Assembly: GCA_000004985.1 (NCBI GenBank)
Contig: GG739078.1
Reading direction: 5' to 3' (one strand)
Length of the DNA: 8,229 nucleotides
Source: Naegleria gruberi
Lineage: Eukaryota
Both the position numbers and the translations under genes were made by a program. Position 1 is the first letter of the stretch. Each line of letters begins with the position of its first letter. Shown piece by piece: positions 715 to 8,229 of this stretch. The notes below the pieces were generated by a model. It saw nothing but the letters and a program-made list of their open reading frames with translations. It searched no databases and was not told the origin of the DNA.

Positions 715-1235
715 ATGTCTTCACCAACCTTTACTTTGATTGATGAGAATCCACAAAAAACCATTGATGAAGTTCTCATTGAACAACAAAGCCACAGTGA
801 AAGATTATTGGACAAACCAATGGAAAAGGGATTTTCCTTTAAATTTGATTATGTTGCAACCATCGGAAAAACTGGACATGAAGGAAATGGACACGATGAA
901 TTTAATAGACCAGACGATGTGATCATTACAAGAGATAGATATTTAATTGTTGCAGATAAAGAAAATGAAAGATTGCAAGTTTTTATTGAAGATTATTCAT
1001 TAATTTGGAAATATTTCACAACCATCAAAACTCCTCAAGTGAAACCATACTGTTTAGAATTGAAAGAAAGTGAAAATGGAGAAGAAACTTTATGGGTCTT
1101 GGGTGATCATTCAAATCAACAAGTGTTGAAATTTTCAAACATTTCACAATTCATTTCTGATATTAACAATGGAAAGGAAACTAAACCAGAACAAGTTGAT
1201 AAAAAAACTAGCGGATCATTTGTTAATTTCCAATT
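715..1235 (+). CDS. NHL repeat-containing protein; N-terminus complete, 3' end lost in assembly gap
   Basis: The frame is open from ATG 715 (context aaaaaaaATGtct) to the gap. The translation contains a canonical NHL repeat, GHEGNGHDEFNRPDDVIITRDRYLIVADKENERLQVF; compare the Pfam NHL pattern sPrGvavd..G.iyVaD..N.rvqvF. A second, degenerate repeat follows: PYCLELKESENGEETLWVLGDHSNQQVLKF. The first ATG follows an in-frame stop. Family assignment is from memory of the NHL consensus, not from a search. Confidence 0.6.
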
Positions 1236-4200
1236 NNNNNNNNNNNNNNNNNNNNNNNNNNNNNNNNNNNNNNNNNNNNNNNNNNNNNNNNNNNNNNNNN
1301 NNNNNNNNNNNNNNNNNNNNNNNNNNNNNNNNNNNNNNNNNNNNNNNNNNNNNNNNNNNNNNNNNNNNNNNNNNNNNNNNNNNNNNNNNNNNNNNNNNNN
1401 NNNNNNNNNNNNNNNNNNNNNNNNNNNNNNNNNNNNNNNNNNNNNNNNNNNNNNNNNNNNNNNNNNNNNNNNNNNNNNNNNNNNNNNNNNNNNNNNNNNN
1501 NNNNNNNNNNNNNNNNNNNNNNNNNNNNNNNNNNNNNNNNNNNNNNNNNNNNNNNNNNNNNNNNNNNNNNNNNNNNNNNNNNNNNNNNNNNNNNNNNNNN
1601 NNNNNNNNNNNNNNNNNNNNNNNNNNNNNNNNNNNNNNNNNNNNNNNNNNNNNNNNNNNNNNNNNNNNNNNNNNNNNNNNNNNNNNNNNNNNNNNNNNNN
1701 NNNNNNNNNNNNNNNNNNNNNNNNNNNNNNNNNNNNNNNNNNNNNNNNNNNNNNNNNNNNNNNNNNNNNNNNNNNNNNNNNNNNNNNNNNNNNNNNNNNN
1801 NNNNNNNNNNNNNNNNNNNNNNNNNNNNNNNNNNNNNNNNNNNNNNNNNNNNNNNNNNNNNNNNNNNNNNNNNNNNNNNNNNNNNNNNNNNNNNNNNNNN
1901 NNNNNNNNNNNNNNNNNNNNNNNNNNNNNNNNNNNNNNNNNNNNNNNNNNNNNNNNNNNNNNNNNNNNNNNNNNNNNNNNNNNNNNNNNNNNNNNNNNNN
2001 NNNNNNNNNNNNNNNNNNNNNNNNNNNNNNNNNNNNNNNNNNNNNNNNNNNNNNNNNNNNNNNNNNNNNNNNNNNNNNNNNNNNNNNNNNNNNNNNNNNN
2101 NNNNNNNNNNNNNNNNNNNNNNNNNNNNNNNNNNNNNNNNNNNNNNNNNNNNNNNNNNNNNNNNNNNNNNNNNNNNNNNNNNNNNNNNNNNNNNNNNNNN
2201 NNNNNNNNNNNNNNNNNNNNNNNNNNNNNNNNNNNNNNNNNNNNNNNNNNNNNNNNNNNNNNNNNNNNNNNNNNNNNNNNNNNNNNNNNNNNNNNNNNNN
2301 NNNNNNNNNNNNNNNNNNNNNNNNNNNNNNNNNNNNNNNNNNNNNNNNNNNNNNNNNNNNNNNNNNNNNNNNNNNNNNNNNNNNNNNNNNNNNNNNNNNN
2401 NNNNNNNNNNNNNNNNNNNNNNNNNNNNNNNNNNNNNNNNNNNNNNNNNNNNNNNNNNNNNNNNNNNNNNNNNNNNNNNNNNNNNNNNNNNNNNNNNNNN
2501 NNNNNNNNNNNNNNNNNNNNNNNNNNNNNNNNNNNNNNNNNNNNNNNNNNNNNNNNNNNNNNNNNNNNNNNNNNNNNNNNNNNNNNNNNNNNNNNNNNNN
2601 NNNNNNNNNNNNNNNNNNNNNNNNNNNNNNNNNNNNNNNNNNNNNNNNNNNNNNNNNNNNNNNNNNNNNNNNNNNNNNNNNNNNNNNNNNNNNNNNNNNN
2701 NNNNNNNNNNNNNNNNNNNNNNNNNNNNNNNNNNNNNNNNNNNNNNNNNNNNNNNNNNNNNNNNNNNNNNNNNNNNNNNNNNNNNNNNNNNNNNNNNNNN
2801 NNNNNNNNNNNNNNNNNNNNNNNNNNNNNNNNNNNNNNNNNNNNNNNNNNNNNNNNNNNNNNNNNNNNNNNNNNNNNNNNNNNNNNNNNNNNNNNNNNNN
2901 NNNNNNNNNNNNNNNNNNNNNNNNNNNNNNNNNNNNNNNNNNNNNNNNNNNNNNNNNNNNNNNNNNNNNNNNNNNNNNNNNNNNNNNNNNNNNNNNNNNN
3001 NNNNNNNNNNNNNNNNNNNNNNNNNNNNNNNNNNNNNNNNNNNNNNNNNNNNNNNNNNNNNNNNNNNNNNNNNNNNNNNNNNNNNNNNNNNNNNNNNNNN
3101 NNNNNNNNNNNNNNNNNNNNNNNNNNNNNNNNNNNNNNNNNNNNNNNNNNNNNNNNNNNNNNNNNNNNNNNNNNNNNNNNNNNNNNNNNNNNNNNNNNNN
3201 NNNNNNNNNNNNNNNNNNNNNNNNNNNNNNNNNNNNNNNNNNNNNNNNNNNNNNNNNNNNNNNNNNNNNNNNNNNNNNNNNNNNNNNNNNNNNNNNNNNN
3301 NNNNNNNNNNNNNNNNNNNNNNNNNNNNNNNNNNNNNNNNNNNNNNNNNNNNNNNNNNNNNNNNNNNNNNNNNNNNNNNNNNNNNNNNNNNNNNNNNNNN
3401 NNNNNNNNNNNNNNNNNNNNNNNNNNNNNNNNNNNNNNNNNNNNNNNNNNNNNNNNNNNNNNNNNNNNNNNNNNNNNNNNNNNNNNNNNNNNNNNNNNNN
3501 NNNNNNNNNNNNNNNNNNNNNNNNNNNNNNNNNNNNNNNNNNNNNNNNNNNNNNNNNNNNNNNNNNNNNNNNNNNNNNNNNNNNNNNNNNNNNNNNNNNN
3601 NNNNNNNNNNNNNNNNNNNNNNNNNNNNNNNNNNNNNNNNNNNNNNNNNNNNNNNNNNNNNNNNNNNNNNNNNNNNNNNNNNNNNNNNNNNNNNNNNNNN
3701 NNNNNNNNNNNNNNNNNNNNNNNNNNNNNNNNNNNNNNNNNNNNNNNNNNNNNNNNNNNNNNNNNNNNNNNNNNNNNNNNNNNNNNNNNNNNNNNNNNNN
3801 NNNNNNNNNNNNNNNNNNNNNNNNNNNNNNNNNNNNNNNNNNNNNNNNNNNNNNNNNNNNNNNNNNNNNNNNNNNNNNNNNNNNNNNNNNNNNNNNNNNN
3901 NNNNNNNNNNNNNNNNNNNNNNNNNNNNNNNNNNNNNNNNNNNNNNNNNNNNNNNNNNNNNNNNNNNNNNNNNNNNNNNNNNNNNNNNNNNNNNNNNNNN
4001 NNNNNNNNNNNNNNNNNNNNNNNNNNNNNNNNNNNNNNNNNNNNNNNNNNNNNNNNNNNNNNNNNNNNNNNNNNNNNNNNNNNNNNNNNNNNNNNNNNNN
4101 NNNNNNNNNNNNNNNNNNNNNNNNNNNNNNNNNNNNNNNNNNNNNNNNNNNNNNNNNNNNNNNNNNNNNNNNNNNNNNNNNNNNNNNNNNNNNNNNNNNN

Positions 4201-6337
4201 NNNNNNNNNNNNNNNNNNNNNNNNNNNNNNNNNNNNNNNNNNNNNNNNNNNNNNNNNNNNNNNNNNNNNNNNNNNNNNNNNNNNNNNNNNNNNNNNNNNN
4301 NNNNNNNNNNNNNNNNNNNNNNNNNNNNNNNNNNNNNNNNNNNNNNNNNNNNNNNNNNNNNNNNNNNNNNNNNNNNNNNNNNNNNNNNNNNNNNNNNNNN
4401 NNNNNNNNNNNNNNNNNNNNNNNNNNNNNNNNNNNNNNNNNNNNNNNNNNNNNNNNNNNNNNNNNNNNNNNNNNNNNNNNNNNNNNNNNNNNNNNNNNNN
4501 NNNNNNNNNNNNNNNNNNNNNNNNNNNNNNNNNNNNNNNNNNNNNNNNNNNNNNNNNNNNNNNNNNNNNNNNNNNNNNNNNNNNNNNNNNNNNNNNNNNN
4601 NNNNNNNNNNNNNNNNNNNNNNNNNNNNNNNNNNNNNNNNNNNNNNNNNNNNNNNNNNNNNNNNNNNNNNNNNNNNNNNNNNNNNNNNNNNNNNNNNNNN
4701 NNNNNNNNNNNNNNNNNNNNNNNNNNNNNNNNNNNNNNNNNNNNNNNNNNNNNNNNNNNNNNNNNNNNNNNNNNNNNNNNNNNNNNNNNNNNNNNNNNNN
4801 NNNNNNNNNNNNNNNNNNNNNNNNNNNNNNNNNNNNNNNNNNNNNNNNNNNNNNNNNNNNNNNNNNNNNNNNNNNNNNNNNNNNNNNNNNNNNNNNNNNN
4901 NNNNNNNNNNNNNNNNNNNNNNNNNNNNNNNNNNNNNNNNNNNNNNNNNNNNNNNNNNNNNNNNNNNNNNNNNNNNNNNNNNNNNNNNNNNNNNNNNNNN
5001 NNNNNNNNNNNNNNNNNNNNNNNNNNNNNNNNNNNNNNNNNNNNNNNNNNNNNNNNNNNNNNNNNNNNNNNNNNNNNNNNNNNNNNNNNNNNNNNNNNNN
5101 NNNNNNNNNNNNNNNNNNNNNNNNNNNNNNNNNNNNNNNNNNNNNNNNNNNNNNNNNNNNNNNNNNNNNNNNNNNNNNNNNNNNNNNNNNNNNNNNNNNN
5201 NNNNNNNNNNNNNNNNNNNNNNNNNNNNNNNNNNNNNNNNNNNNNNNNNNNNNNNNNNNNNNNNNNNNNNNNNNNNNNNNNNNNNNNNNNNNNNNNNNNN
5301 NNNNNNNNNNNNNNNNNNNNNNNNNNNNNNNNNNNNNNNNNNNNNNNNNNNNNNNNNNNNNNNNNNNNNNNNNNNNNNNNNNNNNNNNNNNNNNNNNNNN
5401 NNNNNNNNNNNNNNNNNNNNNNNNNNNNNNNNNNNNNNNNNNNNNNNNNNNNNNNNNNNNNNNNNNNNNNNNNNNNNNNNNNNNNNNNNNNNNNNNNNNN
5501 NNNNNNNNNNNNNNNNNNNNNNNNNNNNNNNNNNNNNNNNNNNNNNNNNNNNNNNNNNNNNNNNNNNNNNNNNNNNNNNNNNNNNNNNNNNNNNNNNNNN
5601 NNNNNNNNNNNNNNNNNNNNNNNNNNNNNNNNNNNNNNNNNNNNNNNNNNNNNNNNNNNNNNNNNNNNNNNNNNNNNNNNNNNNNNNNNNNNNNNNNNNN
5701 NNNNNNNNNNNNNNNNNNNNNNNNNNNNNNNNNNNNNNNNNNNNNNNNNNNNNNNNNNNNNNNNNNNNNNNNNNNNNNNNNNNNNNNNNNNNNNNNNNNN
5801 NNNNNNNNNNNNNNNNNNNNNNNNNNNNNNNNNNNNNNNNNNNNNNNNNNNNNNNNNNNNNNNNNNNNNNNNNNNNNNNNNNNNNNNNNNNNNNNNNNNN
5901 NNNNNNNNNNNNNNNNNNNNNNNNNNNNNNNNNNNNNNNNNNNNNNNNNNNNNNNNNNNNNNNNNNNNNNNNNNNNNNNNNNNNNNNNNNNNNNNNNNNN
6001 NNNNNNNNNNNNNNNNNNNNNNNNNNNNNNNNNNNNNNNNNNNNNNNNNNNNNNNNNNNNNNNNNNNNNNNNNNNNNNNNNNNNNNNNNNNNNNNNNNNN
6101 NNNNNNNNNNNNNNNNNNNNNNNNNNNNNNNNNNNNNNNNNNNNNNNNNNNNNNNNNNNNNNNNNNNNNNNNNNNNNNNNNNNNNNNNNNNNNNNNNNNN
6201 NNNNNNNNNNNNNNNNNNNNNNNNNNNNNNNNNNNNNNNNNNNNNNNNNNNNNNNNNNNNNNNNNNNNNNNNNNNNNNNNNNNNNNNNNNNNNNNNNNNN
6301 NNNNNNNNNNNNNNNNNNNNNNNNNNNNNNNNNNNNN
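1236..6337. other. Assembly gap (5102 consecutive N)
   Basis: An uninterrupted run of n spans 1236 to 6337. Its non-round length suggests an estimated-size scaffold gap. Every ORF-track entry crossing it (715..6345, 1169..6385, 1216..6459 minus) is mostly X and is artefactual there. Confidence 0.99.
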
Positions 6338-6459
6338 ATAAATAGAAAGGAATGCGTCAAATGGATCTTGTTCAATTTTACTTGAGTTTTTTGTTCGTTC
6401 ACAAATTTTCTTCCAATATCCAACTGGTAGTATGATTCGAACGAATCATTTGGCGCCAT
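6338..6459 (-). CDS. Candidate first coding exon of an unknown gene, divergent from the MCM9-like gene; runs into the gap
   Basis: The minus-strand frame opens at ATG (plus 6457-6459, context aaaATGgcg) and reads MAPNDSFESYYQLDIGRKFVNEQKTQVKLNKIHLTHSFLF before the N-run. It has no recognisable domain, only 40 real codons, and only modest first-position G bias. A CCAAT box and a TATA-like run lie at appropriate upstream distances. Confidence 0.25.
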
Positions 6460-6575
6460 TTTTATTCATCAATGTTTACACTGTAAATTCCAAGCCTAGA
6501 GTTTTGAAGAAGGCTTTCTTGATAAAAATAGCGAACTTTTACAACCAATGAGTCCCTCACTGTTAAAGTTGCGTT

Positions 6576-6588
6576 TTAAGGTGGCACT
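6576..6588. repeat. Left copy of an exact 13-nt inverted repeat (ttaaggtggcact)
   Basis: 6576-6588 reads ttaaggtggcact, the exact reverse complement of 7421-7433 (agtgccaccttaa). It lies 117-129 nt upstream of the minus-strand ATG. It is GC-containing, which is unusual in this AT-rich spacer. Confidence 0.6.
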
Positions 6589-6670
6589 GTAGCTGACAAT
6601 AAAAGGAAATTCGGTAAAAATTTTTGGTTAATTATTTTTTACAATTCTTGCTGAATGACGAAGTAATTTA

Positions 6671-7042
6671 TTAAAGTTTGAGAGGTTCTCCTACACTCTC
6701 CTACAAATTTGGAGACTTGGTTAGAAGACAGCATCTTCTCTTATATGTGAATAGTTTATCCCTACTTTACTTTGCTTTACTTTTCACTCTCTTTAGAATA
6801 AATAATGAAATCCCAACATGATCCGATTGTTCTTCATCATCGTAACGGTAAAAAAATTAAAGTTTTAACCTTCTCCTACACTCCAGTAACAAAATTAAAC
6901 ATTGCAAAAAACAAGATATGGTCTAGATGTGTTGTTATGTTTGTACCAACTTTACTTTGCCTTCTTATTGTGTTTCCGTATTGAAAATAAGCAACTAAAA
7001 GTACTATCAAAACCAATTAATTTTATTTTCGGATGTTTCTAC
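6671..7042. repeat. Diverged tandem duplication, two units of ~185-186 bp
   Basis: ttaaagttt sits at 6671-6679 and 6857-6865. The exact 13-mer ttctcctacactc sits at 6686-6698 and 6871-6883. The exact 12-mer actttactttgc sits at 6764-6775 and 6949-6960. Both anchor pairs are offset by exactly 185 bp, and the anchors are 78 nt apart in each unit. Sequence between the anchors is only about 50% identical. The ctcctaca octamer occurs three times (6688, 6698, 6873). A TACTT/TGCTT pentamer-like run follows anchor 2 in unit 1. Confidence 0.4.
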
Positions 7043-7420
7043 AAATTTTAAATGAAATTGCATCACGAAGATAGGATTCAACTGTTTCTGTAGCAAAAGA
7101 GAATATTCTAAGAACAATACTGAATGTGTATGTAGATCACTGGTGGAAATTATGACAAGTGCTATGGAGAAAAAACAAGATGCTAGTTGTAAAATTGACG
7201 AAAGAAGTGCATAGTTTCAGAAACACAATCAACAGAAATTAATTTCCGAAAAAGAAAGAAGAAGAAAATAGATCATGGTGTTTCATGTTCCTGTACTGCA
7301 AAAGTTGTCCTTGTAAATCAGCTCGTGTGTTGTGTGGCAATGATTGTCACAAAGGACAAACAAGATGTAAACTGTTACGACTTGTTATTTTTTTTAAAAT
7401 TTTGGTGAACAATGAACAAT

Positions 7421-7433
7421 AGTGCCACCTTAA
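7421..7433. repeat. Right copy of the exact 13-nt inverted repeat (agtgccaccttaa), 26-38 nt upstream of the MCM9-like ATG
   Basis: Exact reverse complement of 6576-6588. If the core is GGTGGCACT...AGTGCCACC (9 bp), both ends are flanked by TTAA (ttaa|ggtggcact ... agtgccacc|ttaa). Confidence 0.6.
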
Positions 7434-7458
7434 TTTTCCAATTTTTAAAAGAAAAAAA

Positions 7459-8229
7459 ATGCCACCAAAGAAGAGGAATATTAATTATGATGATGACGAT
7501 GCTGATGAAAACGATAATGCAGGAAATGAGAGTTTAATTGTTCGGGAGCGATTAAATTTTGCTAACCGAAGCAGTAATGGATCATCTTCGGGTGGTGGTA
7601 GTGTAGGATCATCGAATAGTACTAATCAGTGGTGTGCTTTTAATATTGGTGATAAATCGGAGAATGATATTGAACGTGTGATGATTGCCTACTTGGAAAA
7701 GTATCACTTGCAAGATATTAGAGATATTTTGTGTCCTCCTCTCACTCTAACAAATGATGATACAATTCACTATAGTGTATTTATTGATGTTTCACATTTC
7801 ATGTCTGCAAATATTGAAATTGGATCAATTTTATTATCATACCCAACAGAATTAATTCCTATTTTTGAGAGAGCACTGATTAAAACACAGCAACGTCACA
7901 TTGAAAAACAAGAAGTTATGAAGGAACAATTTAAATTGAAAACATTTGTGCATGTTAGACTTCATACGTTACCACAATGTTCCGAAGTAACAAAAACATC
8001 AGTGAGATCTGTTAGGAGTTGTGACGCTAATAGATTAATTTCTGTCAGTGGTACTGTCATTAAAACAGGGCCTATCAAAATGTTGGAGTATAAGAAGATT
8101 TATATTTGTAAAAAGTGTAAAAAGNNTCATTTGATATTGTTGCAGATAGAGAACAATTTAATAGTATAACGAAACCAACACAATGCCCAATTGAAGATTG
8201 TGGAGGAAAATCATTTTTCGAGAGAGGAG
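7459..8229 (+). CDS. MCM9: MCM8/9-clade replicative-helicase paralogue, most like MCM9; N-terminal domain, partial (continues past window end)
   Basis: ATG 7459 is the first in-frame ATG after the TAG at 7420-7422, in A-rich context aaaaaaaATGcc. The translation matches human MCM9 N-terminal blocks recalled from memory. ...YLEKYHLQDI..IL... matches YVSEYHKNDILLIL. NIEIGSILLSYPTELIPIFERAL matches [37 protein letters not shown] matches LHARISGLPVCPEL. LISVSGTVIKTGPIKMLEYKKIYICKKCKK matches [30 protein letters not shown]. After the NN at 8125-8126 the homology continues in the next frame: SFDIVADREQFNSITKPTQCPIEDCGGKSFF against [21 protein letters not shown], the C4 zinc-finger region. MCM8 also fits loosely (PTKCPVPVCRGRSFT), so the MCM8-versus-MCM9 assignment is tentative. 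An extra ~60-aa N-terminal extension holds an NLS-like PPKKRN, an acidic run DDDDADENDN and an S/G-rich segment. Confidence 0.7.
8125..8126. other. Two ambiguous bases (nn) that shift the MCM9-like reading frame
   Basis: The tracked ORF runs 7459..8169 and ends ...CKKCKKXHLILLQIENNLIV*. The conserved MCM zinc-finger residues continue from 8127 in the +2 frame through the window end. With nn taken as 0 (or 3) bases the alignment to MCM9 is gap-free: CKKCKK-SFDIVADREQF against [17 protein letters not shown]. Confidence 0.8.

Follow-up and report, generated by a model that had tools for sequence, protein, structure and literature searches.

What is the exact 13-nt sequence that stands, in inverted orientation, on either side of the spacer upstream of an MCM9-like gene in Naegleria gruberi: a promoter element shared by two divergently transcribed genes, or the two ends of a transposon inserted at TTAA? 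We considered this question for a stretch of 8,229 nt (contig GG739078.1 of assembly GCA_000004985.1, hereafter the window), which is a small gapped scaffold of N. gruberi. The readable part amounts to ~3.1 kb, with N at 1236-6337 (a gap of 5.1 kb) and at 8125-8126 (62% of the window). Small gapped scaffolds tend to be repeat-rich. With a somewhat better than even chance of being right, positions 6580-7429 are read here, from the letters of the DNA, as one 850-bp copy of a non-autonomous, Kolobok-like DNA transposon of the cut-and-paste kind, putatively flanked by a duplicated TTAA at 6576-6579 and 7430-7433. Given this length and the single copy seen, "non-autonomous element" is safer wording than "miniature inverted-repeat transposable element" (MITE).

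An inverted repeat with TTAA at its outer ends

The sequence AGTGCCACCTTAA is present exactly twice, at 6576-6588 (minus strand) and at 7421-7433 (plus strand), and no further copy with up to two mismatches was found in the window. Read on one strand, TTAAGGTGGCACT on the left and AGTGCCACCTTAA on the right are the arms of a perfect 13-nt inverted repeat; 832 nt separate them, and the whole spans 858 nt. An earlier, sequence-only reading of this DNA had described this arrangement, with one exact copy upstream of each open reading frame (ORF), and we found it as described. The distances given there to the start codons are likewise correct by the convention used, at 117 nt from 6576 to the A of the minus-strand ATG (6459) and 26 nt from 7433 to the A of the MCM9 ATG (7459), and the motif is indeed much more G+C-rich than its surroundings. 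It is also true that each copy lies in sense orientation to its gene, but this is the mere geometry of any inverted repeat that flanks a divergent spacer.

The exact structure is TTAA, GGTGGCACT...AGTGCCACC, TTAA, and the candidate terminal motif reads TTAA, GGTGGCAC... at the left end and ...GTGCCACC at the right end (Table 1). The repeat ends at 13 nt; only 3 of the following 7 nt match.

Table 1. Coordinates of the proposed element, its parts and the ORFs on either side of it
Feature	Coordinates	Strand	Remark
Left TTAA, proposed target-site duplication	6576..6579	.	Read from sequence; outer 4 nt of the left arm
Left terminal inverted repeat, GGTGGCACT, 5'-GG terminus	6580..6588	+	Perfect complement of 7421-7429
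Interior	6589..7420	.	832 nt, 31% G+C, non-coding
Decayed tandem duplication, 185-nt offset	6660..6994	+	6660-6809 vs 6845-6994
Right terminal inverted repeat, AGTGCCACC, CC-3' terminus	7421..7429	+	Perfect complement of 6580-6588
Right TTAA, proposed target-site duplication	7430..7433	.	25 nt before the MCM9 ATG at 7459
40-codon ORF (MAPNDSFESYY...; MAPNDSFESYYQLDIGRKF...)	6338..6459	-	Presumed divergent gene, runs into the N gap
MCM9-like gene, 5' part	7459..8229	+	Flanking gene, outside the element; 100% identical to XP_002668414.1; Pfam MCM9_N

How often would such a repeat arise by chance? When the 999-nt spacer was resampled with a first-order Markov model, 4.7-5.1% of the trials contained a perfect inverted repeat of at least 13 nt; for 1.9-kb segments generated by Markov resampling, the figure was 10.6%. 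The sequence-only reading had put the chance at 1-3%; any 13-nt repeat is therefore commoner than that estimate, while a G+C-rich one is rarer, as 13-nt inverted repeats with at least 6 G/C were seen in 0.04% of ~1-kb Markov spacers, chance repeats being almost always AT-rich. The combination of TTAA, an inverted pair of at least 9 nt and TTAA, irrespective of composition, was found in 0.135% of simulated spacers. For a large-scale null model, six 10-Mb sequences were simulated with Markov orders 1 and 2 and three training sets. In these 60 Mb, the signature of TTAA and a 9-nt repeat of any composition occurred at a rate that scales to 50-280 per 41 Mb, and TTAA-flanked 9-nt pairs with at least 6 G/C in the 9-mer occurred 0 times. 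We also scanned the real DNA at hand, consisting of 3 kb of the window and the 11.7-kb locus of a relative (L001; ENA metagenome contig ERZ2098899 NODE_562, with an MCM9 that is 70% identical), the sole relative locus obtained. No TTAA-flanked inverted pair other than 6576-7433 was present there, even when repeats as short as 6 nt were allowed.

These numbers bear directly on plain coincidence, by which the two 13-mers would be unrelated, non-functional sequences in an ordinary AT-rich spacer and the TTAA ends and GG/CC termini would be accidental. Inverted repeats of at least 13 nt as such are not rare (~5% of shuffled spacers, ~11% of 1.9-kb segments), a 12-nt perfect inverted repeat also lies nearby, and the repeat stops abruptly at 13 nt. 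Moreover, the feature was picked by eye among an unknown number of windows, with the TTAA and G+C criteria applied afterwards, and no second copy was detected in the metagenome and prokaryote genome contigs scanned, collections that are unlikely to hold Naegleria. Against this, the frequency falls to ~4e-4 per spacer when composition is considered, a TTAA-flanked G+C-rich 9-nt pair is absent from the 60 Mb of simulated sequence, and chance must also have yielded RR/YY termini (R, purine; Y, pyrimidine) together with a close match to published Kolobok termini. Even with the post hoc criteria, coincidence is the less likely explanation; we regard it as unlikely, though with appreciable weight of its own.

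Some further repetition was observed around the arms. At 6563-6588 (+), a 13-nt quasi-copy, TTAAAGTTGCGTT, stands in tandem directly before the left arm TTAAGGTGGCACT, to which it is identical at 9/13 positions; it starts with TTAA followed by AG (an RR start) and could be due to chance or be the trace of an older insertion end. The start-codon regions 6449-6467 and 7451-7469 form an imperfect inverted repeat of their own (AAAAATGGCGCCAAA vs AAAAAAAATGCCACCAAA, 16/19), which brings the occurrences of TGCCACC in the spacer region to three. The right arm also forms a 79% direct repeat with the MCM9 start, 37 nt apart.

Comparison with Kolobok and piggyBac ends

Kolobok elements duplicate TTAA (PMC9587614, PMC6004289) and are set apart from piggyBac by their 5'-RR...YY-3' termini (Kojima and Bao 2022, PMC9587614). 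The proposed element has a 4-bp TTAA immediately outside each inverted repeat, termini of the form 5'-GG(TGGCACT)...(AGTGCCA)CC-3', and terminal inverted repeats that are perfect over 9/9 nt and match at 12/16 positions over the first 16 nt. Because the TTAA duplication and the RR...YY termini are both present, we counted the fit to Kolobok in favour of this assignment. The superfamily is listed in Naegleria (PMC9587614, through a citation to Repbase; Hikosaka et al. 2018, PMC6004289), and the supplements of PMC9587614 contain no Naegleria sequences. The likeness extends to the non-autonomous derivatives of the superfamily, such as the Xenopus T2-MITE/Xmix and the solo long terminal direct repeats (LTDRs) of KolobokP, which have the same TTAA duplication and RR...YY termini (GG...CC in the candidate). 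Short, partly imperfect terminal repeats are also a Kolobok trait, given that the left and right ends of full-length Xenopus Kolobok (XKol) elements match at 10-15 of 16 positions (counted from Table 5 of PMC6004289). Finally, the internal tandem duplication of the candidate has precedent in Xmix/Xstir, Xmix being a Kolobok-related MITE of Xenopus with an amplified internal repeat (PMC6004289).

Several consensus sequences in the supplement of PMC9587614 have termini identical or close to those of the candidate, namely 5'-GGTGGCACactac for KolobokP-4N1_DrPo, 5'-gGGTGGCACacc for KolobokP-1_CySi, 5'-GGTGGCAgggg for KolobokP-6_CGi and N2_CGi, 5'-ggaggcactcc for KolobokP-5_MoPh and ...ctattcAGTGCCACC-3' (...cagtgccacc, LTDR consensus) for KolobokP-1_PhoAus. 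The LTDR consensus of KolobokP-1_PhoAus has the right repeat AGTGCCACC, letter for letter, as its 3' end, and the left repeat shares 8-10 identical nt with the termini of KolobokP-4N1_DrPo and KolobokP-1_PhoAus. The terminal 8-10 nt of the candidate (GGTGGCAC...; ...AGTGCCACC) are thus those of some KolobokP consensus sequences. By our own rough calculation, a comparison with several hundred published termini would yield a match of this kind by chance in 1-4% of cases, and we count the resemblance as supportive only.

Several observations weigh against a Kolobok-type transposon. We have seen a single copy, with no linked transposase found, and a degenerate 23-nt pattern of both ends had no match in metagenome or prokaryote genome contigs, where Naegleria is unlikely to occur. 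The perfect terminal repeat is only 9 nt long, compared with the 16-20 nt typical of KolobokP, although with terminal repeats of 1 to 25 nt in that group (PMC9587614) a length of 9 nt is short but still in range, and gapped local alignment of the 150-nt interiors next to the two ends, run for subterminal similarity, scored no better than shuffles. The terminus match is limited to one subgroup of KolobokP, an animal lineage whose LTDRs are not seen in the candidate; the ends of other KolobokP families are quite different (ggtagcag, gggctcag, gagacaag; PMC9587614), and Xenopus Kolobok elements start with AG(GRR), whereas the candidate starts with GG. All of the chance figures are post hoc, since TTAA and G+C-richness became criteria only once the repeat was in view. 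Transposons make up little of the N. gruberi genome (0.28% by one pipeline), with total repeats at 5.1% by another pipeline (PMC6125883), and the prior for a transposon is therefore modest. An element that landed 25 nt ahead of the MCM9 ATG would also have cut the gene off from most of the sequence that formerly preceded it, and selection might act against this.

In the literature, the motif strings turned up in primers and unrelated sequences only, and searches for Naegleria together with transposons, piggyBac or Repbase returned general repeat statistics only.

The sequence-only reading had also raised the possibility of a TTAA-flanked transposon with 9-bp terminal repeats, which is the better supported of the two explanations it offered, but it had named the piggyBac superfamily. 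The TTAA duplication and the short terminal inverted repeats are indeed shared with piggyBac-superfamily MITEs. Canonical piggyBac elements, however, have 5'-CCC...GGG-3' ends, whereas the candidate has GG...CC, a mismatch that the sequence-only reading had itself pointed out, and searches with the C-terminal zinc-ribbon and DDE families gave no match to the Cys-rich ORF fragments of the interior. Fragments classified as piggyBac have been recorded in N. lovaniensis (29 RepeatMasker table entries; PMC6125883). The assignment nevertheless fails on the termini, as RR...YY is what distinguishes Kolobok from piggyBac (PMC9587614), and we consider a piggyBac-superfamily MITE very improbable.

If positions 6580-7429 are a Kolobok-type transposon, a DDE transposase encoded elsewhere in the genome would have recognised the short terminal repeats GGTGGCACT / AGTGCCACC, and the element would have been excised and then integrated at a TTAA within a former spacer of ~145 bp. 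This TTAA would have lain 25 nt ahead of the MCM9 start codon and 116 nt ahead of the opposite-strand ORF. Repair of the staggered cuts would have duplicated the TTAA, and the predicted pre-insertion (empty) site is AAGTTGCGTT-TTAA-TTTTCCAATTTTT (GCGTT-TTAA-TTTTCC). The 13-nt motif would then be made up of 9 nt of terminal repeat and a palindromic target duplication of 4 nt, and its "sense" orientation to the gene on either side would be a result of geometry. The internal 185-nt duplication would be a decayed tandem repeat, which elements of this type often contain. The genome would be expected to carry further copies as well as an autonomous partner that shares the termini and encodes a Kolobok DDE transposase, typically with THAP and H2CH motifs. 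An unoccupied TTAA site could be sought in L001 only, where the upstream regions are non-syntenic and unalignable.

If confirmed, this would add one copy to the Kolobok-type non-autonomous transposons of N. gruberi, an ordinary kind of feature that opens no long-standing question; the genome is transposon-poor, and Repbase already lists Kolobok families from it. Some 850 bp upstream of MCM9 would then count as mobile-element sequence and not as promoter, related copies could be annotated by a concrete terminal motif (TTAA, GGTGGCAC...), and there might be an insertion polymorphism between strains. The practical value would be modest.

The motif as a shared promoter element

The other explanation offered by the sequence-only reading was a cis-regulatory or transcription start site (TSS)-proximal element shared by the two promoters. 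A factor would then bind AGTGCCACC(TTAA) upstream of both divergent genes and co-regulate them. As in bidirectional promoters with shared inverted cis-elements, two identical, G+C-rich sites are mirrored between outward-reading ORFs, each upstream of the nearest ORF in the same relative orientation, 26 and 117 nt from the ATG, and each much more G+C-rich than its surroundings. At up to two mismatches, we counted 11 matches to the 9-mer in the window compared with 2.7 in shuffles, and a single weak match, AGTGCTTCC, is found 56 nt ahead of a third gene start in the window. The loose 9-mer matches are, however, mostly CCACC/GGTGG, and much of them falls in coding sequence. The same orientation is automatic for any inverted repeat, one ATG is more than four times as far from its copy as the other, a lack of positional symmetry, and the minus-strand "gene" is itself putative. 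Transcription-factor sites rarely match at 13/13 positions.

Recurrence upstream of other genes and conservation upstream of the orthologue were looked for at ~9 gene starts, a sample far too small to exclude a motif. No copy with up to 3/13 mismatches was present upstream of six L001 genes or of the NHL-like ORF of the window (the third gene start), and the 93 bp ahead of the L001 MCM9 orthologue lack the motif. The few tests made thus gave the shared element no support, and we judge it improbable.

A variant combines the two explanations. If a Kolobok-type element was inserted here, 25 nt away from the MCM9 ATG and 116 nt away from the opposite ORF, both of its terminal repeats would have come to lie in core-promoter positions, and the two identical ends might have been co-opted as matched core-promoter (TSS or factor-binding) elements for both flanking genes. 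In that case, a symmetric bidirectional promoter would have arisen from a transposon, in a protist whose regulatory regions are very compact. We would give such co-option little credence. Explanations of other kinds take up the remainder of the probability.

Other short sequences that may be of a promoter kind were noted at the start codons. An E2F-like sequence, TTTGGCGCC, overlaps the minus-strand ATG (6449-6457), and TTTTTGGCGC (7568-7577 of L001) adjoins the ATG of an unrelated lebercilin-like gene in the relative; both may be cell-cycle promoter sites. CCAAT pentamers are present in both of the short flanks outside the proposed element (6545-6549 and 7438-7442), as AACCAATGA ~86-90 nt from the minus-strand ATG and as TTCCAATTT ~17-21 nt before the MCM9 ATG, and CCCAATTCC is found upstream of MCM9 in L001.

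The interior and the flanking genes

The G+C content of the interior equals that of the surroundings, with no compositional break at the arms. Pieces of ORFs in the interior had no Pfam match, no tRNA gene or Rfam family was found there (no Rfam match came near the gathering score), and exact look-up of nine spacer ORFs in a collection of 15 billion proteins retrieved none of them. The interior is treated here as non-coding. A sequencing-vector or adapter artefact was set aside because the interior composition is native (31% G+C), and to our knowledge the element ends match no adapter or transposon-tagging end.

The sequence-only reading had reported a 185-bp duplication within the spacer. This duplication is real, but it is old and weak. 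The two units (Table 1) are ~55-60% identical, over a background of 28% +/- 4%, and the offset of 185 is a clear outlier among offsets of 50-500, with 9 high-identity windows compared with a mean of 0.05 elsewhere. A second weak similarity at the same offset pairs 7150-7199 with 7335-7384. We also considered a four-unit 185-bp tandem array across the spacer and rejected it, as only one pair of units is similar.

Frame-broken, Cys-rich ORF pieces were observed at 7056-7419 (+), reading NCFCSKRE..ECVC, KCYGEKTRCSCK and VSCSCTAK / SCPCKSARVLCGNDCHKGQTRCK. A zinc-finger or CXC remnant at this position was rejected as unsupported, as the pieces had no Pfam match and no word-sharing homologue. Their sole HMMER match among 1.84 billion proteins, a bacterial repeat protein aligned in nine weak stretches with no cysteine motif, was a repeat-inflated artefact. 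Strand composition switches near 7000 (6688-7337), with the left half C/T-rich on the plus strand and the right half purine-rich. Each half of the spacer resembles the sense strand of the gene that it faces, which could reflect divergent transcription or old coding remnants.

On the right of the spacer, the MCM9-like ORF matches a partial "predicted protein" of N. gruberi (XP_002668414.1) at 100% identity and carries Pfam MCM9_N, in agreement with the identity proposed by the sequence-only reading; the MCM9 of the relative (P0002, 70% identical) carries MCM9_N and MCM_OB. No second copy of MCM9 was found in the protein database. The left partner of the divergent pair is less certain. The minus-strand ORF of 40 codons runs into the gap, and no family match (Pfam), homologue or annotated protein was retrieved for it. 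The head-to-head pair is therefore an assumption. A run of A precedes the ATG of the minus-strand ORF, as at other Naegleria start codons, and this A-rich context makes the pair plausible.

The region upstream of MCM9 in L001 is not syntenic with the window. At 8486-11005 of L001, MCM9 follows a PfkB-family kinase gene that lies on the same strand and ends 93 bp before it, indicating that the gene order upstream of MCM9 differs from that in the window. The PfkB and lebercilin-like proteins had no tblastn match in the window, and the region upstream of MCM9 in L001 aligned with the window no better than did shuffles.

On the far side of the gap, the ORFs of more than 1700 aa that appear to cross 1236-6337 are artefacts of translated N. 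An NHL-repeat-like ORF at 717-1235 (+) runs into the gap and is 98% identical to the N. gruberi predicted protein P0004 (239 aa), which is recorded on a 396,166-bp contig. The left part of the scaffold is therefore a near-identical duplicate, or an alternative haplotype, of a region on that large scaffold.

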